DNA of 38,194 bases from a virus (Duplodnaviria; Heunggongvirae; Uroviricota; Caudoviricetes): IMG/VR virus record IMGVR_UViG_2537562192_000020. One strand, written 5' to 3'. Made by a program: the position numbers and the translations under genes. Numbering within the stretch: position 1 is the stretch's first letter; every line of letters begins with the position of its first letter. Shown one piece after another: positions 3,252 through 37,497 of this stretch. Under the pieces are notes generated by a model that was not told the DNA's origin, did no database searches, and saw nothing but the letters and a program-made list of their open reading frames with translations.

Positions 3252-3920
3252 TTAACTTTCTGCCGCCAAAGTGCCGCCACTGCATTTGTCGCCTAAACGC
3301 CTATTTGAAACGATTAATCTCTCGGCGATCTTAATCTTGGAGAGCTTATCTAGGCAGATAAAGCATATTGCTACTCCCGATACCACAAAATAGCTGCTTA
3401 AACCAAAGTATTGCCAAGTAGTTAGATGGTTTATCTTCTCCATCATCTTAGCACTTACTACAACAGAATAACTGAAAGGAAGTGCTACGATGAGACTGCC
3501 CATGAAGTAAATTAGAGTTGTTATAATTTTTATTAATTTTCTATATATGCTGTATTTATATCTTTTTTTATTCCATGCGAATATTTCTTTATGGGTGGTA
3601 ATGGAAATTAGACTTTGACATTTGGAATAATCATCTATATCGCTAACGGGGTTTGTTGTGTTGAGTAATATTAATCTTTGTTTTTTTGTCAATGTGTTAT
3701 CTTTGGTTAATGCAGCAATGCCGTAATCTTCCGCCAGTTTTTTGAAGGTCGGATCTTCACTGCTTTTATACATCTGATATGAAAATTCGCTAATGTTTTT
3801 ACGTGATGTGAATAGTTTGTCTTTTTTATAAGTCCACCCTGTTTTAAGCCCTAATAAGGATATAATGGCAGATAGGGAAGGGAATAATATTTTTATAAGT
3901 AACTCTAGTTCGCTATTCAT
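3252..3920 (-). CDS. hypothetical membrane protein (AT-rich moron between int and attL)
   Basis: 222-aa ORF with about 3 predicted hydrophobic helices; strongly AT-rich relative to the phage backbone; GAGGT RBS before ATG at 3920; immediately downstream of int on the same strand. Confidence 0.55.
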   Translation of the reverse strand: MNSELELLIKILFPSLSAIISLLGLKTGWTYKKDKLFTSRKNISEFSYQMYKSSEDPTFKKLAEDYGIAALTKDNTLTKKQRLILLNTTNPVSDIDDYSKCQSLISITTHKEIFAWNKKRYKYSIYRKLIKIITTLIYFMGSLIVALPFSYSVVVSAKMMEKINHLTTWQYFGLSSYFVVSGVAICFICLDKLSKIKIAERLIVSNRRLGDKCSGGTLAAES

Positions 3921-3930
3921 AAATTACTAC

Positions 3931-4947
3931 TTACCTCAAATTAAATAAAGGATTTTTAGTTACGGCATCTTCTAAATGGTCTGGGGCGAAGTGTGCATAG
4001 ACCATGGTCATTTTTATATCTGAATGTCCTAGGATATCCCGCAAAACCAATATGTTTCCACCATTCATCATAAAATGGCTAGCGAATGTATGACGCAGAA
4101 CGTGAGTACATTGACCCTCTGGCAGATCGATACCAGCCCGCTTTACTGCACGCTCAAAGGCTTTTCTGCATGGGGTGAATAACTTCCCCCTATTCTTAGG
4201 CAGTTCTTCATATAAATCCTTAGAAATAGGCACAGTTCGGTTTTTCTTGCCTTTGGTCTTGGTATAAGTGATACGGTATTTTGATACCTGATGACTCTGC
4301 AGGTTTTCGGCTTCGCTCCAGCGTGCGCCGGTGGCCAGGCATATTTTTGCAATCAAAAGCAGGCTGGAGCTTTGAGAATCGGCGCAGGCATCCAGCAGAC
4401 GTTTAATTTCTTCCGGGGTCAGGAACGCCAATTCACTCTCAGCAATTTTAAATGTTGGCAGCCCAGCAAGCGGGTTGGGGGCTGACCAGTGGCCCAGCTT
4501 TTTCAGTGTACCAAAAACAGATGATAGATTGCGCTGTTCAAGGTTTACCGTGCGGGGCTTAACGGGCGACATAAACGTGCCATCTTCATTTCGTACTTCA
4601 CCTTTTAACCGTGCTTCGCGGTATTTCGTAAAGTCACCGGCTGTCAGTTCTGAAGCGATGGGATCGCCTAGACCATTACAGATAATTCTAAGTTTCGCTA
4701 TGAGGCGCTTGGGGTCTGCGAGTGTTTGACCATACAGGGAATACCACTGCTCAATTAATTCTGATAGGTGTCGCCGATCTTCCTTTTCCCCCAGCCATGG
4801 TTTTTTGTTCACTTCTTCCATTGTGAAGCTTTCAAAAGCAATGGCTTCGCCTTTCGTAGCAAATTGCTTACGCACGCGCTTGCCATTGCGTCCATTGGGA
4901 TAGCACTCGCACAACCATTTACCGTTTGGCTGTTTTCTGACAGTCAT
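3931..4947 (-). CDS. int: tyrosine integrase (P2/186 Int family)
   Basis: 338 aa; C-terminal R...HxLRHT...Y catalytic signature (VLRHTFASHF...MVYAH); adjacent to att repeat. Confidence 0.9.
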   Translation of the reverse strand: MTVRKQPNGKWLCECYPNGRNGKRVRKQFATKGEAIAFESFTMEEVNKKPWLGEKEDRRHLSELIEQWYSLYGQTLADPKRLIAKLRIICNGLGDPIASELTAGDFTKYREARLKGEVRNEDGTFMSPVKPRTVNLEQRNLSSVFGTLKKLGHWSAPNPLAGLPTFKIAESELAFLTPEEIKRLLDACADSQSSSLLLIAKICLATGARWSEAENLQSHQVSKYRITYTKTKGKKNRTVPISKDLYEELPKNRGKLFTPCRKAFERAVKRAGIDLPEGQCTHVLRHTFASHFMMNGGNILVLRDILGHSDIKMTMVYAHFAPDHLEDAVTKNPLFNLR

Positions 4948-4949
4948 GT

Positions 4950-5582
4950 TTAGATACTCTTTATTACTTTGACTGCACGCCCAATAACTTCCACATCATC
5001 AGCAGAGCACTCGAAAGACGCTTCATCTTGATTTACTACAATCTTATTGCCGGGAATCCGCATGATTTTTGCAATAATAATCATTCCATCAATATTGATA
5101 AGCCAGAATCCATTGCTGACTTGTTTAACTGATTTATCGATGAGATAACAATCAGTAGGGGTTTCTAAGAACATCGATTCTTCATAATCTGCAGGTAATA
5201 TGCTGTGGTCTAGGAAAATCTCTTCATCAATACTGAGTTGTCCATTTTCCAAGGTTCCTTTAGGAATAGATGGAGTTATGAGTTTGGATAACGGTTTAAT
5301 TGCTTGTTTGTTCTCGTTATGAGATCTTTTCTCAGGCTCGTATCCTTCTTTCATGCTTCCCTGTCCAGTGGCTAACCAAAGTAACGAAACACCGGTTTCT
5401 AGTGCACACTGAATTATCCAGTCAGCAGGAAAACTGTCACGTAACACTCTGTTTGCCATAGTACTTTTTGAGACATTCAGGTGCTCGCTTAATGCCTGCT
5501 TAGTTGTGAATCCATAAGCCTCAAGCAGCCTCTCAATAGCTGCCTTACCTCCCGTATCGGAACCCATTCTGATGTTTAACAT
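4950..5582 (-). CDS. cI: CI-type immunity repressor (186 CI-like)
   Basis: 210 aa with N-terminal HTH (LSEHLNVSKSTMANRV); positioned between int and divergent early operon as in phage 186. Confidence 0.7.
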   Translation of the reverse strand: MLNIRMGSDTGGKAAIERLLEAYGFTTKQALSEHLNVSKSTMANRVLRDSFPADWIIQCALETGVSLLWLATGQGSMKEGYEPEKRSHNENKQAIKPLSKLITPSIPKGTLENGQLSIDEEIFLDHSILPADYEESMFLETPTDCYLIDKSVKQVSNGFWLINIDGMIIIAKIMRIPGNKIVVNQDEASFECSADDVEVIGRAVKVIKSI

Positions 5583-12292: not shown

Positions 12293-13102
12293 ATGAGTAC
12301 TAACAGCGAACGTATGTCCAATGCGCCCGTTTACTATGCATTGGTACAGGTAAAGTTTACTCCAATAGCTGCAATGAGTAAGTATGTTCCAGACATACAA
12401 GATGCGCTAAGAGTTGAGGGATTTCCTTTATTTGAGGTTTCCAATACAACTCAGTTGAAATTTGAAATAAAAAACCCCAATGAGCCACCGGTACATTCAT
12501 TTGAGCCTGTGACAAGTTGGTTGATGATTGATGCAGATAGAAGATCTGGTTTTGTTTTAGGCAACGATTTCATTACGTTCCATACAACATATTATGATAA
12601 CCATGTATCTTTCATCTCGTCATTGATACTTGGTCTGAGCAAAGTTCTAGAATTTGCTAAGCCATCGCTGTTAAGTCGGATTGGGCTTCGATATTTGGAT
12701 GCTGTGTTTCCTGAGAAAAGCGAAACAATTGAGCAGTATCTTGTAAAGGAACTTCATGGTGTTGATTTCGGATGGACGCCAATACAGTCTATACAAGAGT
12801 CCGTATATCAGACATGTGTTGAGCCATTGATCCCTAATGGATTTATGGTTTCACGAATACATAAGATGAATGGTCAGCTAGGTTTTCCGCCAGATATGAT
12901 TCCTAATGGTTTACTGCCGTTGCCGAGATTTAGTAACACAGAGCATCGTATGCACGCAATAATTGATACAGATCATTATGTTGAAGGCAACATGTCAACT
13001 GATTTGCAGTTAATTGAAAAACAGATTCTTTCGTTGCATAGTAAAGTTAAAGAAGCATTTGAAGGCATGGTTTCAGATTTTGCCCGTACTAAATGGCACT
13101 GA
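12293..13102 (+). CDS. hypothetical protein, cargo gene 1 of cos-proximal cassette
   Basis: 269 aa; AGGAGGG RBS; AT-rich; contains RIGLRYLD segment; no similarity to P2/186 core proteins recognised. Confidence 0.7.
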   Translation: MSTNSERMSNAPVYYALVQVKFTPIAAMSKYVPDIQDALRVEGFPLFEVSNTTQLKFEIKNPNEPPVHSFEPVTSWLMIDADRRSGFVLGNDFITFHTTYYDNHVSFISSLILGLSKVLEFAKPSLLSRIGLRYLDAVFPEKSETIEQYLVKELHGVDFGWTPIQSIQESVYQTCVEPLIPNGFMVSRIHKMNGQLGFPPDMIPNGLLPLPRFSNTEHRMHAIIDTDHYVEGNMSTDLQLIEKQILSLHSKVKEAFEGMVSDFARTKWH

Positions 13103-13121
13103 AACAACGGAGGTGACTAAA

Positions 13122-13784
13122 ATGTATGCAATTCCCACCGGAAGCATAGGCTCTGTAGATCGATATTCTCCAAATTTGCAGTCAAGCTCATGTGTATCAG
13201 GTGTTGTTGCTGTCGCCGCATCTTTACTATTAGTTGGTACGGGGGCTTCATACCCTGTAAATGCTTATAAGCAATGGCGTCAGTATGTTCAGCCAAGGGT
13301 TCAGTTTGCATTTGATTCCATAGAATCAACGTACACGCCTGCAATTTCTCCTGAGGTTGATGTCAGGAATGTTGCCCAACATTTAGCTAATATTCGAGAA
13401 GTGCTGTCTCCATCAATGTCAGAACTGGCAAAGGATTTGGGGATAACTCGGCAGGCTCTCTATAAATGGTTGTCAGGGGAGAACCAGCCTGATGATGCTT
13501 CAAAAGTGCAATTCATTACCAACCTTAGTAATGTCGCTGACTCTTTTTCCAAAGCTGGACTCCATGATGCGAAGCTATTGGTGAAAATGAAAGCATTTAA
13601 TGGTAAGTCATTAATGGACGTAGTAAAAGAAGGTGAGGATTGGAATAGGGCAGTTCAGGTATTGATTGATGAAGCTAAAGCGATGAATGCTGCTGCTGAA
13701 TCGGCCAATTACTTAGCAAGCAAGGCGAAACCGACAGATGATTGGAAGTCATCTATTTCAATTCCTGGAACGGTAGAGGAATAA
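13122..13784 (+). CDS. hypothetical HTH (XRE-type) protein with N-terminal hydrophobic segment, cargo gene 2
   Basis: GGAGGTGA RBS 9 nt before ATG 13122; hydrophobic stretch VSGVVAVAASLLLVGTGA; HTH SMSELAKDLGITRQALYKWL. Confidence 0.6.
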   Translation: MYAIPTGSIGSVDRYSPNLQSSSCVSGVVAVAASLLLVGTGASYPVNAYKQWRQYVQPRVQFAFDSIESTYTPAISPEVDVRNVAQHLANIREVLSPSMSELAKDLGITRQALYKWLSGENQPDDASKVQFITNLSNVADSFSKAGLHDAKLLVKMKAFNGKSLMDVVKEGEDWNRAVQVLIDEAKAMNAAAESANYLASKAKPTDDWKSSISIPGTVEE

Positions 13785-13793
13785 ATCACATTT

Positions 13794-14642
13794 ATGTTGG
13801 TACGAGGAACATCATGGCGTCAGGGGCATGTACTTAAACATGATGATGCCGTTTCACTTGGAATTCTGCAGCCTGATGAAACGAACCATAAAGTTGTAGT
13901 TATAACGCATGATTGTGATTTACAGAGTAATTCAGAAAAAAACGTGGAACTGATGTTTGGCCCCTTGAAAAAGGGGTCAAGCAGGATGAAAAGAGCTAAG
14001 CATCCGAGAATACTCGATCTATGTTTTGAAAACCCAGAAAGTGCGAAGAAGAATGCAGTAGAGCTCCGGCATGAAAGGAAAGTCATCATTCCTAAAGAAG
14101 CTTTCTGTTGTGAGGAAAACGATCCAGCATTCTCCATTAGCACAGAAGAGAAACAAGCTCTTAAGCAATGGTTAGCTGCTAAGTATGGTCGTCCAGCGTT
14201 TCCTAACTCGTTTGAAGAGCGCTTGCGGGCTTACGACGAGGATAAAAAGTTTATTTTCGAAAAAGAAGTTGCGGATATTATCGCCACAAACGCAGAGCAT
14301 TTGATCGGAGTTTTTTTCGATTTGGGCGAAGAAAGATTTAACGATCTTGAGGAAGGCATACCATATGAGCTTTCTATCAATGTTGTTTATGATGCAACTG
14401 AAGGTGGCCCCGATGCCAGAAGAGCGGCTGAACAAACATGTTCTGATCTAAAGGCTTTGTTTTATAAGTTTTATGGTGATCCAACCTTGGGGCATTCAGA
14501 ACTTATAGAATTGAATACGTGCATAGCTGTTGCTGATACTCATTTCTCCCTGTATGCATTGAGGCGGATGGATCAATGGAGGGTAGAATACATCAGCCTT
14601 GAAGAAGATTCATATGGCGATTTCATTGGTGCCGGTGTTTAA
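13794..14642 (+). CDS. hypothetical acidic protein, cargo gene 3
   Basis: 282-aa ORF 9 bp after gene 2; no recognisable motif. Confidence 0.55.
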   Translation: MLVRGTSWRQGHVLKHDDAVSLGILQPDETNHKVVVITHDCDLQSNSEKNVELMFGPLKKGSSRMKRAKHPRILDLCFENPESAKKNAVELRHERKVIIPKEAFCCEENDPAFSISTEEKQALKQWLAAKYGRPAFPNSFEERLRAYDEDKKFIFEKEVADIIATNAEHLIGVFFDLGEERFNDLEEGIPYELSINVVYDATEGGPDARRAAEQTCSDLKALFYKFYGDPTLGHSELIELNTCIAVADTHFSLYALRRMDQWRVEYISLEEDSYGDFIGAGV

Positions 14643-25328: not shown

Positions 25329-25926
25329 TCTGCTGCCACCGGGTTCAACACCACTGGAGCGCCGACTGGCGCGAACCTGCAGCGGGATTTCTGATCTGCA
25401 GGTGCCACTGCGTGACTTGTGGAATCCTGCGACCTGTCCGGTCAGTTTCCTGCCTTATCTCGCCTGGGCGTTCTCTGTGGAACGCTGGGACGAGAGCTGG
25501 ACAGAAAGCGTCAAACGCCAGGTGGTGAAGGATGCTTTTTATATTCATCAGCACAAAGGAACCACCAGTGCCGTGCGGCGGGTGGTGGAGCCGTTCGGCT
25601 TCCTGATCCGCATTATTGAGTGGTGGCAGACCGGAGAAACACCAGGCACGTTTCGCCTGGATATCGGCGTGCAGGATCAGGGCATCACTGAAGATACCTA
25701 TCTGGAACTTGAGCGGCTGATAAGCGATGCCAAACCATGTAGCCGTCACATGATCGGCATGTCCATCAATCTGCAGACCAGTGGCCCGCACTGGGTAGGG
25801 GCCGCCAGCTATCTTGGTGAAGAAATCACGATCTATCCGTATATCAACGAAACAATTATTTCTGGCGGCACCGCGCATGAAGGCGGGGCGGTCCATGTTA
25901 TTGACACAATGAGAGTGAATCCATGA
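25321..25926 (+). CDS. I: baseplate/tail protein gpI
   Basis: 201 aa, P2 order. Confidence 0.8.
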   Translation: MNSLLPPGSTPLERRLARTCSGISDLQVPLRDLWNPATCPVSFLPYLAWAFSVERWDESWTESVKRQVVKDAFYIHQHKGTTSAVRRVVEPFGFLIRIIEWWQTGETPGTFRLDIGVQDQGITEDTYLELERLISDAKPCSRHMIGMSINLQTSGPHWVGAASYLGEEITIYPYINETIISGGTAHEGGAVHVIDTMRVNP

Positions 25927-27467
25927 GCACAAAATTTTATACCCTGCTGACGGATATTGGCGCGGCGAAACTTGCCAGCGCCGCCGCGCTCGGTGTGCCG
26001 CTAAAAATTACCCATATGGCGGTCGGCGATGGCGGCGGAGTATTACCGACGCCGGACGCAAAGCAGACGGCACTGGTAAATGAGAAACGCCGGGCTGCGT
26101 TGAATATGCTTTATATCGACCCGCAGAACAGTAGCTAGATTATTGCTGAACAGGTGATCCCTGAAAACGAGGGCGGTTGGTGGATACGTGAAGTGGGCCT
26201 GTTTGATGAGTCCGGGGCATTGATTGCCGTGGGAAACTGCCCGGAAAGCTATAAGCCGCAACTGGCTGAAGGCAGCGGGCGTACCCAGACCGTGCGCATG
26301 GTGCTGATTACCAGCAGCACGGACAATATCATCCTGAAAATCGACCCTGCTGTAGTGCTGGCAACCCGTAAATACGTGGATGATAAAGTCCTGGAATTAA
26401 AGCTGTATGTGGATGACCAGATGAGAAACCACATTGCCGCACAAGATCCTCATACCCAGTATGCGCAGAAACATAATCCGACATTTACCGGAGAACCAAA
26501 AGCGCCGACGCCTGCAGCAGGAAATAACACCACTCGGATTGCGACCACAGAGTTTGTTCAGGCCGCTATTACTGCTCTGATTAACGGTGCGCCAGGCACG
26601 CTGGACACACTGAAAGAAATTGCCGCAGCCATTAACAATGACCCGAAATTCAGTACCACTATTAATAATGCGCTGGCACTGAAAGCGCCGCTGTCGAGTC
26701 CGGCACTTACCGGAACGCCAACAGCACCTACTGCGGCGCAGTCGGTCAACAATACACAGATTGCCACTACGGCTTTTGTGAAATCGGCGATTGCAGGAAT
26801 GGTGGGTTCTGCACCTGCGGCACTGGATACATTGAACGAACTGGCGGCGGCGCTGGGGAATGACCCGAACTTTGCCACGACAATGCTTAATGCGCTAGCA
26901 GGTAAACAACCGCTGGACAATACGCTGACTAATTTGAGTGGAAAGGATGTAGCTGGTCTTCTCGCATACCTTGGTTTGGGAGAAGGCTCTGCATTACCGG
27001 TTGGGGTGCCTGTTCCGTGGCCTTCAGCCACACCGCCGACAGGCTGGCTGAAATGCAACGGTGCAGCTTTTTCTGCTGAAGAATACCCGGAACTGGCAAA
27101 GGCTTATCCGACAAATAAATTGCCTGATTTACGTGGTGAGTTTATTCGTGGCTGGGATGATGAACGTGGTGTGGATAGTGGGCGAACTCTGCTTTCAGCG
27201 CAAGGAGATGCTATTCGAAACATTACTGGCGGTTTTGGTCAGTTGCGCGTAAACAGCGAAATAAATGCAATTGTTGATGTTCAAAGTGTGAGTGGTGCTT
27301 TTTACGGAGGTACCTCAGTCCGGAATAACATCAACGTATCTATGACATACGCTAATGACCGAAAAATCCGACAAGATGTTCACTTCTCGGCGGCAAATGT
27401 TGTTCCAACAGCAAATGAAAATCGTCCACGTAACATCGCCTTTAATTATATTGTGAGGGCCGCATGA
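25923..27467 (+). pseudogene. H: tail fibre protein gpH interrupted by in-frame TAG at 26136-26138
   Basis: 25923-26135 and 26139-27467 are in the same frame, separated by a single amber codon; flanking residues align with recalled P2 H N-terminus (…NSNY-IIAE…), the stop replacing the Tyr. Confidence 0.6.
26959..26984. repeat. gix/hix-like 26-bp invertase crossover site (left) inside H
   Basis: TTCTCGCATACC-TT-GGTTTGGGAGAA, imperfect palindrome resembling Gin/Hin sites. Confidence 0.65.
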
Positions 27468-28069
27468 TGAATAAAGCTGTATTAAATAGCGAACTCATCA
27501 CCACAAAGGCGGGAGACATTACCGTTTACAATTATGATGGTGAGACACGAGAATATATTTCCACATCAACTGAATATCTTGCTGTGGGTGTCGGTATCCC
27601 GGCATGTTCCTGTTTAGATGCTCCTGGAACACATAAGGCTGGTTATGCAATCTGCCGTTCGGCAGATTTAAACTCATGGGAATATGTGCCAGACCATCGC
27701 GGTGAAGTTGTCTATAACACCGAAACGGGAGAATCAAAAGAAATCACAGCTCCGGGTAATTACCCTGAAAATACAACCACTATCGTCCCGTTAACGCCAT
27801 ACGATAAATGGGATGGTGAGAAATGGGTGACGGATACCGAGGCACAGCATAGCGCCGCAGTAGAAGCGGCAGAAGCACAGCGCCAGTCGCTGATTGATGC
27901 TGCAATGGCTTCCATCAGTCTGATTCAACTGAAATTACAGGCCGGGCGGAAGCTGACGCAGGCAGAAACCACCCGACTTAACGCCGTGCTGGATTACATT
28001 GACGCGGTGACGGCAACAGATACCAGCACTGCGCCGGATGTCATCTGGCCTGAACTGCCGGAGGCGTAG
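27464..28069 (+). CDS. G: tail fibre assembly chaperone gpG (Tfa)
   Basis: 201 aa following H; Tfa-like C-terminus. Confidence 0.75.
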   Translation: MMNKAVLNSELITTKAGDITVYNYDGETREYISTSTEYLAVGVGIPACSCLDAPGTHKAGYAICRSADLNSWEYVPDHRGEVVYNTETGESKEITAPGNYPENTTTIVPLTPYDKWDGEKWVTDTEAQHSAAVEAAEAQRQSLIDAAMASISLIQLKLQAGRKLTQAETTRLNAVLDYIDAVTATDTSTAPDVIWPELPEA

Positions 28070-28460
28070 GCCATTCAATATCTGGAGCACTGGAGGTATC
28101 AACCAGTTCCAGTGCGTCCAGATAATCCAGCCACAAATTATATTGCGCCAGTTCCTCACCTTTCAGACGACCAATAGCGGCTTTACCAGGCCATTGCTTA
28201 CTGTTCATGTATTCGTTGGCCTGTTCAATAAGTATACTTTTCATTCCCTCCGCTTCAGCTATTTCCTGTTCCTGTGTCTTCGCTGGATATTCAGTAAGTA
28301 CAGGGTAGTTATCCGGGTTATTGATAATAATTTTCCCCGTACTCTGACCATTCATAAGTTCATAATAAAGAGCATCTTCAATATCGAAAGCATCATCGGG
28401 AATATCGCTGTTATTTTCAGAGAAAAATCCCTGAACAGATGGGGACCATTTCATTTTCAT
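28041..28460 (-). CDS. alternative tail fibre assembly chaperone (Tfa') in inverted orientation
   Basis: 139-aa convergent ORF; C-terminus ...[12 protein letters not shown] parallels gpG C-terminus ...[12 protein letters not shown]. Confidence 0.65.
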
Positions 28461-28870
28461 AATTTCCCAATTCCTAAAATGTGGACATCATCAGCCTTAC
28501 GGGCATTCCAGGTGACAATTACATCGGTAGAGTGACGATTAACTGAGATTGCATATGCTTCGTTAGTCGAGCCAGAAACTTTTGTAGCAAACACAGCAAA
28601 CAGGACACCAAATGACTGGGGCCATTTATAGCCTGACAGCTGATAATTACCATTATTCAGTGTTACAGCTTTGGCTGCTGCACTTGATGGAATCGTCAGC
28701 CACTGAAGTATCAACCCTCCTGGCAAAAGTTGTTTTCCGTAATAATCCCTCACCCCACTAAATGAAGCCATGTCCGGTATCTGATTTTCCCCTGTTCCCA
28801 CACCCCGTTTTGCCGCTTCTCCCAAACCAACGTTTATGAAAATGCAGAGATAACGGCTAACTGGCATCAT
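28457..28870 (-). CDS. alternative tail fibre C-terminal variable domain (promoterless; expressed only after inversion)
   Basis: Minus-strand ORF; shares GLGE junction codons with H at the crossover site, then diverges. Confidence 0.6.
28817..28842. repeat. gix/hix-like 26-bp invertase crossover site (right)
   Basis: TTCTCCCAAACC-AA-CGTTTATGAAAA; left half is the exact reverse complement of the right half of site 26959-26984; about 55 bp upstream of invertase gene. Confidence 0.65.
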
Positions 28871-28897
28871 CTCCGGTTTTTATTCAGGGGGATGATC

Positions 28898-29479
28898 ATG
28901 CTTATTGGCTATGTACGCGTGTCAACAAATGACCAGAACACCGATTTGCAACGCAATGCACTGAACTGTGCGGGATGTGAGCGGATTTTTGAGGATAAAA
29001 TCAGTGGCACCAAGTCCGACAGACCGGGGCTGAAAAAGCTGCTCAGGACACTATCGGCAGGAGACACGCTGGTTGTCTGGAAGCTGGACAGACTGGGGCG
29101 CAGTATGCGGCATCTTGTTACGCTGATAGAAGAGCTGCGCCAGCGTGGCGTGAATTTCCGAAGCCTGACTGACAGTATTGATACCAGCACCCCAATGGGC
29201 CGTTTCTTTTTTCATGTCATGGGTGCCCTGGCTGAAATGGAACGCGAACTGATAGTTGAACGTACCAGGGCGGGGCTGGCTGCAGCTCGTGCTAAAGGCA
29301 GAGTAGGTGGACGCCGTCCTAAGTTGACCAGCGAACAGTGGGCACAGATTGGGCGTTTACTCGAGGACGGAGAATCAAGACAGCGTATTGCACTGATTTT
29401 TGATGTAGGCGTTTCTACCATTTATCGAAAATTTCGGCAAATAAGAACAATAAATCTCCCTGAATCAGCTTTATTTTGA
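28898..29479 (+). CDS. serine DNA invertase (Gin/Pin/Hin/Cin family)
   Basis: MLIGYVRVSTNDQNTDLQRNAL... near-identical in pattern to recalled Gin; catalytic Ser in YVRVST. Confidence 0.9.
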   Translation: MLIGYVRVSTNDQNTDLQRNALNCAGCERIFEDKISGTKSDRPGLKKLLRTLSAGDTLVVWKLDRLGRSMRHLVTLIEELRQRGVNFRSLTDSIDTSTPMGRFFFHVMGALAEMERELIVERTRAGLAAARAKGRVGGRRPKLTSEQWAQIGRLLEDGESRQRIALIFDVGVSTIYRKFRQIRTINLPESALF

Positions 29480-29511
29480 TTATCCCTGAAAGCAGACAAA
29501 TACCGTCATTT

Positions 29512-29529
29512 TGTGTGAATAACGGTACA
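29512..29529. promoter_or_regulatory. Ogr/B-type site (TGT-N12-ACA) upstream of FI
   Basis: TGTGTGAATAACGGTACA, about 80 bp upstream of sheath start. Confidence 0.5.
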
Positions 29530-29605
29530 ACTGCGCTTGGCTGTTTGTCAGGCACAATCACTTCAACATAGGGCGAAGCCTAATCCAATCAGGAGGTTCG
29601 CCACT

Positions 29606-30778
29606 ATGGCTCAGGATTACCACCACGGGGTGCGCGTTGTTGAAGTCAACGAAGGCACCCGATCCATTACCACGGTGAGCACCGCCATCGTGGGTATGGT
29701 CTGCACGGGCGATGATGCCGATGCAAAAATGTTTCCTCTTAATAAACCCGTGCTGATCACTGATGTGCTGACTGCCAGCGGTAAAGCGGGTGAGTCAGGC
29801 ACGCTGGCTCGTTCGCTGGATGCCATCGCTGACCAGGCAAAACCCGTGACCGTTGTTGTGCGTGTGCCGCAGGGTGAAACGGAAGAAGAAACCACGACCA
29901 ATATCATCGGCGCAGTGACCGCTGAAGGTAAAAAAACAGGCATGAAAGCCCTGTTATCTGCCCAGTCACAGCTCGGCGTTAAACCGCGCATTCTCGGCGT
30001 GCCAGGTCACGACACGAAGGCGGTAGCTACTGAGTTGCTGAGTGTGGCGCAAAGCCTGCGTGGATTTGCTTACCTGTCAGCGTATGGTTGCAAGACGGTG
30101 CAGGAAGCAATCACTTACCGTGAAAACTTCAGTCAGCGTGAAGGAATGCTGATCTGGCCCGACTTTACTGGCTGGGACACGGTGCTGAATGCCGAAGCAA
30201 CGGCTTATGCCACCGCCCGTGCGCTTGGTCTGCGCGCCAAAATTGACGAGCAGACCGGATGGCACAAAAGCCTGTCCAACGTGGGCGTTAACGGTGTCAC
30301 CGGAATTTCTGCTGATGTGTTCTGGGATCTGCAGGACCCGGCAACCGATGCGGGACTGCTGAACCAGAACGACGTCACCACCCTTATCCGCAAAGACGGT
30401 TTTCGCTTCTGGGGTTCCCGCTGCCTGAGTGATGACCCGCTCTTTGCCTTCGAAAACTACACCCGCACGGCGCAGGTGCTGACGGACACGATGGCAGAAG
30501 CGCACATGTGGGCGGTGGATAAACCGCTGAATCCGTCGCTGGCCCGCGACATTATCGAGGGTATCCGCGCCAAAATGCGCAGCCTGGTCAGTCAGGGCTA
30601 TCTCATTGGTGGTGATTGCTGGCTGGATGAGTCGGTGAACGACAAAGACACGCTGAAAGCCGGAAAACTCACCATCGACTACGACTACACGCCAGTGCCG
30701 CCACTTGAAAACCTGATGCTGCGTCAGCGCATCACCGATCAGTACCTGGTTAATTTCTCCAGCCAGGTCAGCGCGTAA
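29606..30778 (+). CDS. FI: tail sheath protein FI
   Basis: ATG 29606 with AGGAGG RBS; extensive match to recalled P2 FI (DYHHGV.V.E.NEGTR...[19 protein letters not shown]). Confidence 0.9.
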
Positions 30779-31786: not shown

Positions 31787-34636
31787 ATGAGTGATAATAA
31801 CCTGCGCCTGCAGGTCATTCTTAATGCGGTTGACAAACTCACCCGCCCATTCCGTGCTGCACAGGCCAGTTCGAAAGAGCTGGCTGGCGCAATTCAGAAT
31901 ACCCGAAACAGCCTCAAAGAACTGAATAAGCAGGCTGGCAGAATTGATGAATTTCGCAAGACGCGCTCGCAACTAGCCATAACAGCCAACAACCTGAACG
32001 CAGCCCGCGAAGAGGCGGCAAAACTCGCCACACAATTTGCTGCCACTAACAGGCCAACCGCCGCGCAGGCAAAGTTATTCAGTCAGGCCAAAACACGAGT
32101 ACAGGAACTTCAGCAGACCTATAACGGCTTGTTGGGGGCGGTCCAGAGACAACGTCAGGCACTTAAAGAATCAGGGATTGATACCAGACAACTCAGTAGT
32201 GCCCAGCGAGAACTTAAGAAAAATGCCGAAGAAACTCGTCAGGCACTGGAGGGCCAGAAAAAAGCACTTAAACGTCTGGGTGAACAACAGGCACGGATGA
32301 ACGCTGCCAGAGAACAATACTCAAGACGGCTTGAAGTGCGCGATCGCATCGCAGGAGCCGGAGCCACCACCACGGCTGCAGGGCTGGCAATGGGCGCGCC
32401 AGTGATGGCGGCGGTAAAAAGCTATACCAGCATGGAAGATGCCATGAAAGGTGTGGCAAAGCAGGTCAATGGTCTGCGTGACGATAATGGCAACCGCACT
32501 GCGCGTTTTTACGAAATGCAGGATGCCATCAAAGCTGCCAGTGAACAGCTGCCAATGGAAAACGGTGCTGTGGACTTCGCCGCACTGGTTGAAGGTGGTG
32601 CGCGCATGAATGTGGCAAACCCTGACGACAGCTGGGAGGACCAGAAACGTGACCTGCTGGCCTTCGCCAGTACGGCAGCAAAGGCGGCAACAGCCTTTGA
32701 GCTGCCAGCTGATGAACTGTCAGAAAGTCTGGGGAAAATCGCCCAGCTCTACAAAATACCAACCCGCAATATTGAACAGCTCGGTGATGCGCTGAACTAT
32801 CTGGATGATAACGCTATGTCGAAAGGGGCAGACATCATTGATGTCATGCAACGCCTGGGCGGTGTGGCTGATCGTCTGGATTATCGTAAAGCGGCGGCGC
32901 TGGGTTCCACCTTCCTGACACTGGGTGCTGCGCCGGAGGTCGCTGCCAGTGCTGCCAACGCGATGGTGCGTGAATTGTCCATTGCGACCATGCAAAGCAA
33001 GAGTTTCTTTGAAGGAATGAATCTGCTGAAACTCAATCCTGAAGTGATTGAAAAGCAGATGACGAAGGATGCGATGGGAACTATCCAGCGCGTACTGGAG
33101 AAGGTGAACGCACTGCCGCAGGATAAGCGCCTGTCTGCCATGACCATGTTGTTTGGTAAAGAGTTTGGCGATGATGCGGCGAAACTGGCAAACAACCTGC
33201 CGGAACTGCAGCGCCAGCTAAAACTGACAGCGGGCAATGATGCGCTCGGTTCGATGCAGAAAGAATCCGACATTAACAAGGACTCACTTTCTGCGCAGTG
33301 GTTGTTGGTCAAAACCGGAGCGCAGAACACCTTCAGCAGCCTGGGCGAAACGCTGCGCCAGCCGCTGATGGATATTCTGTACACGGTGAAAAGCATCACG
33401 GGGGCGTTGCGTCGCTGGGTGGAAGCTAACCCTGAACTGACGGGCACACTGATGAAAGTAGCCGCGGTTGTGGCTGCTGTTACTGTGGGCCTCGGCACCC
33501 TGGCTGTGGTGTTGGCTGCTGTGCTGGGGCCGCTGGCAGTCATCCGTCTGGGATTCTCTGTGCTGGGTATCAAAACGTTACCTTCCGTTACGGCAGCAGT
33601 AACGCGAACCAGCAGCGCGTTGTCCTGGTTGGCTGGCGCACCACTTGCACTGCTGCGACGCGGGCTTGCTTCATCGGGCAACGCCGCAGGTTTACTTACT
33701 GCGCCGTTGTCGTCTTTGCGCCGCACGGCATCACTGACGGGAAATGTCCTGAAAACTGTAGCAGGTGCGCCGGTTGCACTTTTGCGGTCTGGATTATCCG
33801 GTTTACGTGCTGTTGCTGTGATGTTTATGAATCCTCTGGCGGTACTGCGCGGTGGACTGGCCTCCGCAGGCACGGTGCTGCGAGTACTGGCATCTGGTCC
33901 ACTGGCGATGCTGCGCGTTGCCCTGTATGCCGTATCTGGTCTGTTAGGTGCTCTGCTCAGTCCGATAGGTCTTGTGGTTACTGCACTGGCGGGCGTGGCG
34001 CTGGTTGTCTGGAAATACTGGCAACCCATCACCGCATTTCTTGGTGGCGTGGTGGAAGGATTCAAAGCGGCGGCAGGTCCCGTCAGTGCAGCATTCGAAC
34101 CGCTTAAGCCCGTGTTCCAGTGGATTGGCGACAAAGTACAGGCGCTGTGGGGCTGGTTTACTGATCTGCTGACGCCCGTTAAGTCGACCTCTGCCGAACT
34201 GCAGAGTGCAGCGGCAATGGGGCGGCGATTCGGGGAGGCACTGGCGGAAGGGCTGAATATGGTCATGCATCCGCTGGACTCCCTGAAATCCGGCGTTTCC
34301 TGGTTGCTGGAGAAACTCGGCATTGTCAGTAAAGAGGCTGCACTGGCTGCCGTTGTTGCCGGAATGATGGGCGTTGCTGCCGCGCCTGCAGAGCTTCCAC
34401 CGTTGCATCCTTTGGCACTTCCCGCGAAAGGCGGCGAAGCGATGGTGAGTCGTGCAGCCACTGTGCCGCCCGTTCACCGGATTGAGGCACCGACGCAGAT
34501 CATCATTCAGACGCAGCCAGGACAAAGTGCGCAGGATATTGCGCGGGAGGTGGCACGCCAGCTTGATGAACGTGAACGCAGGCTGAAGGCAAAAGCCAGG
34601 AGTAACTACAGCGATCAGGGGGGATACGACGCATGA
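31787..34636 (+). CDS. T: tail tape measure protein gpT
   Basis: 949 aa, coiled-coil N-terminal half and hydrophobic Ala/Gly/Leu-rich segments. Confidence 0.85.
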   Translation: MSDNNLRLQVILNAVDKLTRPFRAAQASSKELAGAIQNTRNSLKELNKQAGRIDEFRKTRSQLAITANNLNAAREEAAKLATQFAATNRPTAAQAKLFSQAKTRVQELQQTYNGLLGAVQRQRQALKESGIDTRQLSSAQRELKKNAEETRQALEGQKKALKRLGEQQARMNAAREQYSRRLEVRDRIAGAGATTTAAGLAMGAPVMAAVKSYTSMEDAMKGVAKQVNGLRDDNGNRTARFYEMQDAIKAASEQLPMENGAVDFAALVEGGARMNVANPDDSWEDQKRDLLAFASTAAKAATAFELPADELSESLGKIAQLYKIPTRNIEQLGDALNYLDDNAMSKGADIIDVMQRLGGVADRLDYRKAAALGSTFLTLGAAPEVAASAANAMVRELSIATMQSKSFFEGMNLLKLNPEVIEKQMTKDAMGTIQRVLEKVNALPQDKRLSAMTMLFGKEFGDDAAKLANNLPELQRQLKLTAGNDALGSMQKESDINKDSLSAQWLLVKTGAQNTFSSLGETLRQPLMDILYTVKSITGALRRWVEANPELTGTLMKVAAVVAAVTVGLGTLAVVLAAVLGPLAVIRLGFSVLGIKTLPSVTAAVTRTSSALSWLAGAPLALLRRGLASSGNAAGLLTAPLSSLRRTASLTGNVLKTVAGAPVALLRSGLSGLRAVAVMFMNPLAVLRGGLASAGTVLRVLASGPLAMLRVALYAVSGLLGALLSPIGLVVTALAGVALVVWKYWQPITAFLGGVVEGFKAAAGPVSAAFEPLKPVFQWIGDKVQALWGWFTDLLTPVKSTSAELQSAAAMGRRFGEALAEGLNMVMHPLDSLKSGVSWLLEKLGIVSKEAALAAVVAGMMGVAAAPAELPPLHPLALPAKGGEAMVSRAATVPPVHRIEAPTQIIIQTQPGQSAQDIAREVARQLDERERRLKAKARSNYSDQGGYDA

Positions 34637-37134: not shown

Positions 37135-37179
37135 TGGTGGAGCTGGCGGGAGTTGAACCCGCGTCCGAAATTCCTACAT
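37135..37179. repeat. prophage attachment-site direct repeat (right copy) = 3' end of intact ssrA
   Basis: Identical to 3122-3166. Confidence 0.85.
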
Positions 37180-37497
37180 CCTCGGTACTACATGCTTAGT
37201 CAGTCTTTACATTCGCTTGCCAGCTGCGGACGGACACGCCACTAACAAACTAGCCTGATTAAGTTTTAACGCTTCAACCCCAGGCAGGGCTTCCACGCGA
37301 TCTCTTTTGGGTTTGACCTCTCTTGATCCCCGTCCTAAGAGCGGAGGCTAGGGAGAGAGGGCTCTAAGCAGGTTATTAAGCTGCTAAAGCGTAGTTTTCG
37401 TCGTTTGCGACTATTTTTTGCGGCTTTTTACGAGGCCAACCGCCCCTCGGCATGCACCTTGGGTTTCGCAAATCCCGTCGAATCCAGAATCAGCCCC
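37135..37497 (-). ncRNA. ssrA: tmRNA (SsrA), 363 nt
   Basis: Reverse complement begins GGGGCUGAUUCUGGAUUCGAC and ends ...GUUCAACUCCCGCCAGCUCCACCA, matching my memory of E. coli tmRNA. Confidence 0.95.

Follow-up and report, generated by a model that had tools for sequence, protein, structure and literature searches.

A probable two-state, Gin/Cin-type invertible tail-fibre segment in a P2-like prophage of Escherichia coli

Invertible tail-fibre segments are best known from phage Mu, whose G segment is accompanied by the invertase Gin, and from phage P1, whose C segment is accompanied by Cin. In Mu, the constant part of the fibre gene is followed by a recombination site, the convergent cassettes Sv-U and U′-Sv′, a second site and the invertase gene, and the sites are 26 bp long with an AAACC-NN-GGTTT core. 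The P1 arrangement differs, because cin lies on the other side of the segment and cixL overlaps its 3′ end. The e14 P segment (Pin) and the Salmonella H segment (Hin) share the invertase subfamily and the site design, but Hin flips a promoter rather than a coding C-terminus, and e14 is a defective lambdoid element. Multi-state, shufflon-like systems occur in p15B and in one EPEC prophage, the latter with three repeats and four variants. Invertible loci are also present in P2-like phages and prophages, namely Fels-2 (with the invertase Fin), the EPEC E2348/69 prophages, and phages Cartapus, 500465-1 and KP12. A passage in PMC4122451 places the fin gene in Fels-2, and the P2-like prophages of EPEC E2348/69 carry invertible loci with populations of mixed orientation (Goldberg et al., 2014; PMC4272514). 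Furthermore, an invertase gene, together with inverted neighbouring genes, is frequent in the Z/fun hotspot of P2-like phages (bioRxiv 10.1101/2024.10.15.618418).

We analyzed a locus of this kind in a stretch of viral DNA of 38,194 nucleotides (the window). With a probability of roughly 0.9, a P2-like (Fels-2-like) prophage at ssrA in E. coli here carries an invertible tail-fibre segment of the Gin/Cin type that has two states. Its features, from left to right, are:

25923-26970, plus strand: constant N-terminal part of the fibre gene H (P2 gpH-like), with Pfam Phage_tail_fib on either side of an in-frame stop
26959-26984: left recombination site, inside the H coding sequence, crossover TT at 26971-26972
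26973-27467, plus strand: variable C-terminus A of H (Pfam Collar, 2.4e-15), fused in frame in the present orientation
27464-28069, plus strand: tfa-A, assembly gene and chaperone partner of C-terminus A (Pfam Caudo_TAP, 4.1e-32)
28041-28460, minus strand: tfa-B, assembly gene (Pfam Caudo_TAP, 5.7e-24), downstream of H in flipped relatives
28457-28828, minus strand: variable C-terminus B, gp53-like (weak gp53-like_C match), without a start of its own
28817-28842: right recombination site, crossover AA at 28829-28830, outer half-site degenerate
28898-29479, plus strand: serine DNA invertase of the Gin/Cin/Hin/Pin subfamily, 193-aa allele (Pfam Resolvase, 2.9e-53; HTH_7, 4.4e-15)
28916-28987: putative recombinational enhancer, Fis-dependent, within the first part of the invertase gene; its counterpart in P1 is annotated as the Cin enhancer

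The order of these elements is that of the Mu G segment, the sites have the same length and the same type of core, and degenerate matches to the Fis core occupy corresponding places in the two invertase genes. The segment differs from that of Mu in its size (1.86 kb versus approximately 3 kb), in its central dinucleotides (TT/AA versus TC/GA) and in its fibre modules, those of Mu being unrelated to the Collar and gp53-like modules found here; in addition, a 29-bp overlap of the convergent tfa-A and tfa-B genes is a feature of the window, and the phage is P2-like rather than Mu-like. The central TT/AA is shared with cixL and cixR of P1, and the half-sites are very similar, although the invertase gene is placed as in Mu and hin, beyond the right site. 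The distance of approximately 100 bp between site and enhancer matches that of hin (PMC3798978), the dependence on Fis and on an enhancer being putative here. An earlier reading of the same DNA, made from its letters alone (the sequence-only reading), had proposed an architecture of the Mu G, P1 C and e14 P type, and every element of it is present and correctly placed. The P2-like invertible loci are of the same phage type and occupy the same position, in the Z/fun hotspot between tfa (G) and the sheath gene FI, and annotated P2-like phage records have the gene order of the window. No difference in kind separates them from the window, which departs from them in its particular pair of cassettes, in its 193-aa allele of the invertase and in the amber codon of its H gene; such an architecture has been described before in P2-like prophages, and this is an ordinary Gin/Cin-type switch.

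The host element is a P2-like (Fels-2-like) E. coli prophage integrated at ssrA. The gene order, which was read from the open reading frames and from the annotation of a 99.97%-identical prophage in E. coli 2015C-3121, is V-W-J-I-H-G ... FI-FII-E-T-U-D with an insertion between G and FI, as in the P2-like (Peduoviridae) cluster. The prophage of 2015C-3121 adjoins ssrA, and the window carries a tmRNA gene at 37135-37497. The assignment of the region to the second variable hotspot of P2-like phages, made in the sequence-only reading, agrees with published work (bioRxiv 10.1101/2024.10.15.618418). Elsewhere, from the integrase to ogr/D, the prophage appears complete; its tape-measure gene carries an in-frame deletion of 222 bp relative to 2015C-3121. 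No known defence system was detected with PADLOC and Pfam among the cargo genes at 12293-14642.

Read directly from the letters of the window, the left site is the 26-bp sequence TTCTCGCATACC-TT-GGTTTGGGAGAA (26959-26984), and the right site, of the TTCCCCAAACC-type, is the 26-bp sequence TTCTCCCAAACC-AA-CGTTTATGAAAA (28817-28842). Two inverted sites of 26 bp are present, each with imperfect half-sites of 12 bp and a 2-bp core that matches that of the other after inversion. The two inner half-sites agree in all of their 12 bp, or in 13 when the flanking G/C is counted, and the letters, coordinates and identity of the two imperfect palindromes are as first quoted. The central dinucleotides, TT on the left and AA on the right, are reverse complements of each other, which is what inversion requires. 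The pair is the longest inverted repeat between 26000 and 30000 (27 nt, 81% complementary, 1830 nt apart). When the 38-kb window was searched with the pattern TTCTCNNAAACCNNGGTTTNNGAGAA, allowing up to 3 mismatches, the only two matches were the two sites, and 100 shuffles of the window gave none. Comparison with known invertase sites, which had been proposed as a check, yielded an alignment of both sites with gixL/R and cixL/R as read from the Mu and P1 records. Additional crossover sites, as expected of a multi-state system, were considered and rejected, since only weak matches with 4 mismatches were found (11441 and 26774) and these were judged to be due to chance; the window thus has two sites only, where the EPEC prophage mentioned above has three.

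Two C-termini, each with its own tfa gene, can be read in frame with the fibre gene, within which the left site is situated; the two cassettes are convergent. On the plus strand H, with its Phage_tail_fib and Collar domains, ends at 27467. The central TT provides codon positions 2-3, giving CTT (Leu) on the plus strand and GTT (Val) on the minus strand, and when the segment was flipped in silico H and C-terminus B formed an open frame through to the stop, joined at ...YLGLGE. The compatible codon phase and the GLGE shared by both junctions, as noticed in the sequence-only reading, are therefore borne out. The two C-terminal domains are unrelated, one matching Collar and the other, weakly, gp53-like_C. 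Both fusions exist in other records: H with C-terminus A is an intact 514-aa protein in L009, and H with C-terminus B is annotated as an intact protein of 473 aa in 2015C-3121, ATCC 8739 (NC_010468), phage Cartapus, L004, L007 and L010. Cartapus is a sequenced phage, and its gp53-like C-terminus is likewise joined at GLGE. For the C-terminus cassette on the minus strand the scan detected no sigma-70 promoter, the only minus-strand match lying inside tfa-B, and this fits a promoterless distal cassette; tfa-B would be expressed only after inversion. Open reading frames, Pfam domains and promoter scan all agree with the earlier description of a plus-strand H C-terminus and tfa gene facing a promoterless C-terminus and tfa gene on the minus strand.

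Inversion has occurred naturally at exactly these sites in near-identical prophages. When the window was flipped in silico, it matched E. coli 2015C-3121, 2018-166 and STEC2018-553 at 99.9% identity over 100% of its length in a single piece, whereas a megablast search of E. coli genomes and phages with the unflipped window gave no full-length near-identical match, as the close relatives are in the flipped state. The breakpoints of this natural inversion fall at 26971-26985 and 28816-28833, i.e., within the sites. Among the contigs that encode the identical 193-aa invertase, most of them draft short-read assemblies, 22 are flipped and 2 unflipped. This skew is toward the gp53-like orientation, and it is equally well explained by the clonal relatedness of the sampled strains. 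One flipped and one unflipped carrier of the 193-aa allele each differ from the window at 2 positions in 8582 bp, so that inversion took place later than the origin of the allele. A further case is given by two assemblies of ATCC 8739 (NZ_CP033020 and NC_010468): once the segment is flipped exactly in one of them, they agree in all of 6699 bp, the inversion being their sole difference at the homologous locus; here each half-site has a marker base at its inner end that moves with the segment. In complete E. coli genomes, at a coverage of at least 80%, 22 records match the query as it stands and 19 match the flipped query. These comparisons are between strains and assemblies, and they provide the strongest support for the site-specific inversion that had been predicted, with both orientations in near-identical prophages and the breakpoints at the predicted sites.

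The invertase gene begins with the ATG at 28898, 55 nt past the right site, and its product has the Resolvase and HTH_7 domains anticipated for a Gin-like enzyme at approximately this place. No sigma-70-like promoter was detected by the scan in the 55-bp spacer. The protein aligns end-to-end with Mu Gin (3UJ3) over residues 1-180 (E = 3e-91) and is 79% identical to P1 Cin. Its organization is that of a small serine recombinase: the catalytic domain, at the N-terminus, contains the catalytic residues Ser9 (in YVRVSTNDQ) and Arg42, and an HTH domain lies at the C-terminus; H106 is wild-type. In Hin, residues K47, K/R48 and K/R51 of helix B and Q151, R154 and L155 of helix 1 of the DNA-binding domain are reported to be conserved only in Fis-dependent invertases (PMC3798978). 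All six positions, as read from the sequence, are conserved here as K46, K47, R50, Q150, R153 and L154, the numbering being that of Hin minus 1.

The region 28916-28987 is a candidate enhancer by position, and it corresponds to nt 19-90 of cin, annotated as the enhancer in P1, with 76% identity. Two matches to the Fis core, at 28920-28934 and 28968-28982 (nt 23-37 and 71-85 of the gene), have their centres 48 bp apart, the proximal one being approximately 97 bp from the right crossover point; the consensus used is so degenerate that it matches approximately 8 times per kb in the window. Both cin and gin have such degenerate matches in the corresponding places. This region is coding, so that its conservation is not independent evidence, and identity at third codon positions in the enhancer region versus the rest of the gene (0.46 versus 0.39 with cin, 0.42 versus 0.42 with gin) revealed no clear extra constraint and by itself lends the enhancer no support. 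The region may act as a Fis-dependent enhancer.

In the proposed mechanism, dimers of the invertase would bind both 26-bp sites, with host Fis bound to the putative enhancer, which lies within the 5′ part of the enzyme's own gene. Staggered cuts of 2 bp at the central TT/AA, followed by strand rotation, would invert the 1.86 kb that lie between 26971 and 28830. The late operon would drive the expression of H, with transcription and translation reaching the segment from its left side. As the window stands, this would yield the constant part of H with the Collar-domain C-terminus, followed by tfa-A, and in the other orientation the constant part joined in frame at ...YLGLGE to the gp53-like C-terminus, followed by tfa-B. 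The phage released by a population of lysogens would accordingly be of two kinds, with alternative receptor-binding tips, and these tips may confer different host ranges, so that inversion would act as a host-range switch.

The resident invertase probably does the inverting. It could also be done mainly in trans by another resident enzyme (Pin of e14, Qin or Rac, or that of another P2-like or Mu-like prophage), an explanation to which we give a small but real chance. PinQ of Qin inverts the P segment of e14 (PMC12529663), a passage in PMC4122451 has Fin of Fels-2 able to invert the Salmonella H segment, and a query made of conserved H, the cassettes and the invertase finds a median of 2 and a maximum of 10 matching places per E. 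coli genome. However, the adjacent invertase retains all catalytic and Fis-contact residues, the canonical position and an enhancer-like 5′ region, and its linkage to the segment is conserved across phages.

The same invertase could have been killed by a frameshift, so that the locus would be the frozen relic of a past inversion, decaying along with H; this is somewhat less probable still. It takes its support from the 1-bp deletion at 29435, which in comparison with the 188-aa allele of 2015C-3121, ATCC 8739, and phages Cartapus and 500465-1 replaces the last 9 residues, and from the H amber codon and the tape-measure deletion. That the frameshift is a private lesion of this copy was ruled out, because the exact 193-aa allele occurs in 297 blocks of the collection, and carriers two substitutions away are found, as described, in both orientations. 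Furthermore, the altered tail starts past the last conserved residue, F179, neither the length nor the sequence of this tail is constant across Gin, Cin and the 188-aa allele, and the corresponding segment of Hin is dispensable for Fis-activated inversion (PMC3798978). An active, two-state switch is preferred over a relic. It is improbable, although conceivable, that the 193-aa tail changes the inversion frequency or the orientation bias, or, in a related idea, that a copy with the H amber codon is kept as its inversion products serve the host, for instance by blocking of the StfE2 type; the skewed count of carriers is the one observation that points toward such ideas.

The amber codon, which the sequence-only reading missed, is an in-frame TAG at 26136-26138 that replaces CAG at codon 72 of H; the relatives compared have CAG, whereas GCA_000194435.2, SRR387476 and SRR066813 share the amber allele. 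As it lies upstream of the switch, neither full-length form of the fibre is expected without suppression. The segment can still flip, but in this copy the switch may be phenotypically silent.

The two weakest explanations can be dealt with briefly. Orientation differences that are assembly artefacts, as the many draft short-read assemblies might suggest, or products of RecA-dependent recombination between short inverted repeats, are very unlikely, given that both states occur in complete genomes, the breakpoints coincide with invertase-type sites beside an invertase gene, the shared repeat of 13-27 bp is too short for efficient RecA recombination, and mixed orientations are reported for the EPEC E2348/69 P2-like prophages (PMC4272514). 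Equally remote is a co-option by the host, in which a chimeric fibre fragment would block adsorption of other phages, as does StfE2, a product of e14 P segment inversion (PMC12529663): the H amber codon suggests that this copy may no longer yield infectious phage, but the prophage looks complete and is 99.97% identical to copies with H annotated as intact, and the amber codon would truncate any H-derived chimera as well.

For a two-state switch of the kind preferred here, the finding matters little beyond correct annotation. It explains why opposite-strand 'hypothetical' or truncated 'tail protein' fragments are annotated beside a 'recombinase family protein', and why assemblies of one strain may differ by a 1.9-kb inversion. 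Those who use this prophage or its fibres have the exact crossover point and should note the H amber codon in this copy. For host-range engineering and tailocin work, the segment would offer two receptor-binding modules ready for use, each paired with its chaperone, if the modules have the receptor-binding role that we infer.

The sequence-only reading had placed an invertible segment between two 26-bp sequences at 26959-26984 (left site) and 28817-28842 (right site), and both coordinates and letters agreed when read from the window. The two sites form the longest inverted repeat in 26000-30000 (27 nt and 81% complementary, with 1830 nt between the arms), and the pattern TTCTCNNAAACCNNGGTTTNNGAGAA, with up to 3 mismatches, matched only at these two places in the whole 38-kb window and nowhere in 100 dinucleotide-preserving shuffles. 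The two inner half-sites have one sequence (GGTTTGGGAGAA and its complement), and their outer half-sites are degenerate, the right more than the left. The central dinucleotide of the left site, TT (26971-26972), is the reverse complement of AA (28829-28830) in the right site. As proposed, the sites aligned with known invertase sites, i.e., gixL/R and cixL/R taken from the Mu and P1 records, and they have the central dinucleotide in common with P1 cix. The segment lies in the following gene context.

3931-4947, minus strand, integrase, left prophage end
4950-5582, minus strand, CI-type repressor, left prophage end (genes within 3252-5582)
25923-27467, plus strand, fibre gene H, with a Phage_tail_fib N-terminal domain and a C-terminal Collar domain (2.4e-15)
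27464-28069, plus strand, tail-fibre assembly gene tfa-A (Caudo_TAP, 4e-32)
28041-28460, minus strand, tail-fibre assembly gene tfa-B (Caudo_TAP, 6e-24)
28457-28828, minus strand, alternative fibre C-terminus (weak gp53-like_C match)
28898-29479, plus strand, serine recombinase (Resolvase, 2.9e-53; HTH_7, 4.4e-15)
37135-37497, tmRNA gene (ssrA), adjoining the right prophage end

The neighbouring genes are those of the P2 tail cluster (V, W, J, I, H, G ... FI, FII, E, T), and the prophage is integrated at ssrA, like Fels-2/SopE-phi. The recombinase gene begins 55 nt past the right site, as claimed for a Gin-like serine invertase. The minus-strand ORF delimited by a mechanical ORF finder reaches 28870 and crosses the right site; its first 13 codons are outside the cassette. 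On both strands the crossover TT forms the second and third bases of a codon: CTT (Leu) in H, GTT (Val) in the frame of the minus strand. Flipping 26971-28830 in silico gave an open frame to ...GIGKL-stop, directly followed by tfa-B, which bore out the noted compatibility of codon phase. The GLGE junction was found in phage Cartapus, where the gp53-like C-terminus is joined to H at GLGE. The convergent tfa-A and tfa-B share 29 bp at their 3′ ends (28041-28069), an overlap that ATCC 8739 and the phages 500465-1 and Cartapus also have, unlike the genes U and U′ of Mu, which do not overlap.

Comparison with other genomes provided strong evidence that the segment inverts. With the window orientation as query, no full-length near-identical match was found in 5,426 complete E. 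coli genomes; with 26971-28830 inverted (the flipped query), 100% of the 3,701 bp matched in one piece, at 99.9% identity, in E. coli 2015C-3121, 2018-166 and STEC2018-553. At a coverage of at least 80%, 22 records of complete genomes matched the as-is query and 19 the flipped one. The 2015C-3121 prophage is the same prophage (99.95-100% identity over the stretch compared, 5900-38194), and its alignment was collinear to 26985 and again from 28816, with 26971-28833 inverted; therefore, the breakpoints lie inside the two sites. Both orientations also exist among contigs that encode an identical 193-aa invertase: the L007 type (22 of the 24 contigs read) shows 2 differences from the flipped window over 8,582 bp, L009 is oriented as the window is and also shows 2 differences, and L008 (GCA_000194435.2, contig AEZR02000053.1) matches the window without a difference. 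In a related prophage, the complete ATCC 8739 assemblies NZ_CP033020 and NC_010468 showed, at the homologous locus, 0 differences in 6,699 bp after a flip between the central dinucleotides, and the base that is polymorphic at each half-site's inner edge travels with the segment. E. coli 2020N21-246 (NZ_CM125675) and 2020N21-246-1 (NZ_CM125665), of near-identical strain names, carry a related locus that contains an IS1203 insertion; one was a best match of the as-is query, the other a best match of the flipped query, each at ~80% coverage, and they may be a further pair of records that show one strain in both orientations.

The locus is built like Mu G/Gin, P1 C/Cin and e14 P/Pin, and the sites, cassettes and adjoining Gin/Cin-like invertase anticipated from these systems were all found. 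Such switches have already been described at exactly this position of P2-like prophages, in the literature and in annotated records. Two P2-like prophages of EPEC E2348/69 are reported to have invertible, phase-variable loci (Goldberg et al., 2014; PMC4272514), and the Fels-2 prophage contains the fin invertase gene (PMC4122451). The placement in a variable hotspot of P2-like phages agrees with a 2024 preprint, according to which the Z/fun hotspot often encodes a DNA invertase and adjacent genes are inverted (bioRxiv 10.1101/2024.10.15.618418). The annotated gene order of phages 500465-1 and Cartapus is the same as in the window. Hence, the interpretation as a Gin/Pin-type invertible tail-fibre segment is supported, and the feature is one already known. 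The two unrelated C-terminal domains suggest that it would serve host-range switching.

Residues 1-180 of the invertase aligned with Mu Gin (3UJ3; E = 3e-91), P1 Cin is 79% identical to it, and the catalytic Ser9 and Arg42 are present. His106 is wild-type; Hin H107Y is a Fis-independent mutant. It also carries K46, K47 and R50 in helix B and Q150, R153 and L154 in helix 1 of the DNA-binding domain, whose equivalents are reported as uniquely conserved in Fis/enhancer-dependent invertases (McLean et al.; PMC3798978). The Cin enhancer in the P1 record covers nt 19-90 of cin, and the equivalent region, 28916-28987, is 76% identical. A degenerate Fis core, KNNYRNNWNNYRNNM, occurs at nt 23-37 and 71-85 of the window invertase gene, cin and gin (centres 48 bp apart), a consensus weak enough to occur ~8 times per kb, in a region that is coding. 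Between the proximal core centre and the right crossover point there are ~97 bp, and the corresponding distance in the native hin arrangement is ~100 bp (PMC3798978). These features are consistent with a putative Fis enhancer at 28916-28987, although third-codon-position identity was not clearly elevated in this region.

Relative to 2015C-3121 and the 188-aa allele, a 1-bp deletion at 29435 (codon ~180; TTTCCGGC to TTTCGGC) changes the tail of the invertase from PANKINESP to RQIRTINLPESALF, giving 193 aa. The exact 193-aa protein was found in 297 blocks of the collection, with the 949-aa tape measure alongside; the invertase and tape-measure variants are lineage alleles and not private damage. 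The 193-aa enzyme is probably active, since the allele is widespread, its near-identical carriers show both orientations, Gin, Cin and the 188-aa allele have tails of different sequence and length past F179, and deletion of the corresponding Hin segment had no effect on Fis-activated inversion (PMC3798978). Alternatively, another resident invertase may act in trans, as PinQ does on e14 (PMC12529663) and Fin on the H segment (PMC4122451).

The tape-measure gene (31787-34636) has a 222-bp in-frame deletion at ~34337-34342 relative to 2015C-3121, flanked by two short GCTGCA repeats; the 949-aa product is common to L007-L009 and is therefore a lineage allele, with a shorter tail predicted. The P2 old/tin hotspot, located between the portal gene and replication gene A, here carries three cargo ORFs at 12293-14642 (269, ~220 and 282 aa), one a TIGR04255 family protein by a relative's annotation and one with an HTH domain. 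For this cargo, the sole PADLOC match was weak (RmrA, E = 6e-4), and Pfam gave no informative match; it could be an uncharacterised defence cassette.

Finally, a C-to-T change at 26136 relative to 2015C-3121 converts CAG (Gln) to TAG at 26136-26138, codon 72 of H, inside the Phage_tail_fib domain and upstream of the switch, and divides H into a fragment of 71 aa and an ORF of 437 aa with a GTG start. L007, L009 and all other relatives have CAG here. GCA_000194435.2 has the amber allele too, and an assembly error is unlikely because the allele recurs in the Logan assemblies of SRR387476 and SRR066813, runs that may come from the same strain. The Logan contigs L014-L016, from unrelated short-read assemblies, end at one point within H near codon 71 (~26135); these ends probably mark a branch of the assembly graph, at which several P2-like prophages diverge after a shared 5′ end of H, and have nothing to do with the amber codon. 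Only this amber codon and the invertase tail allele are specific to this copy. Without suppression, neither full-length fibre can be made from it; a supE-type suppressor would return the original Gln at codon 72.
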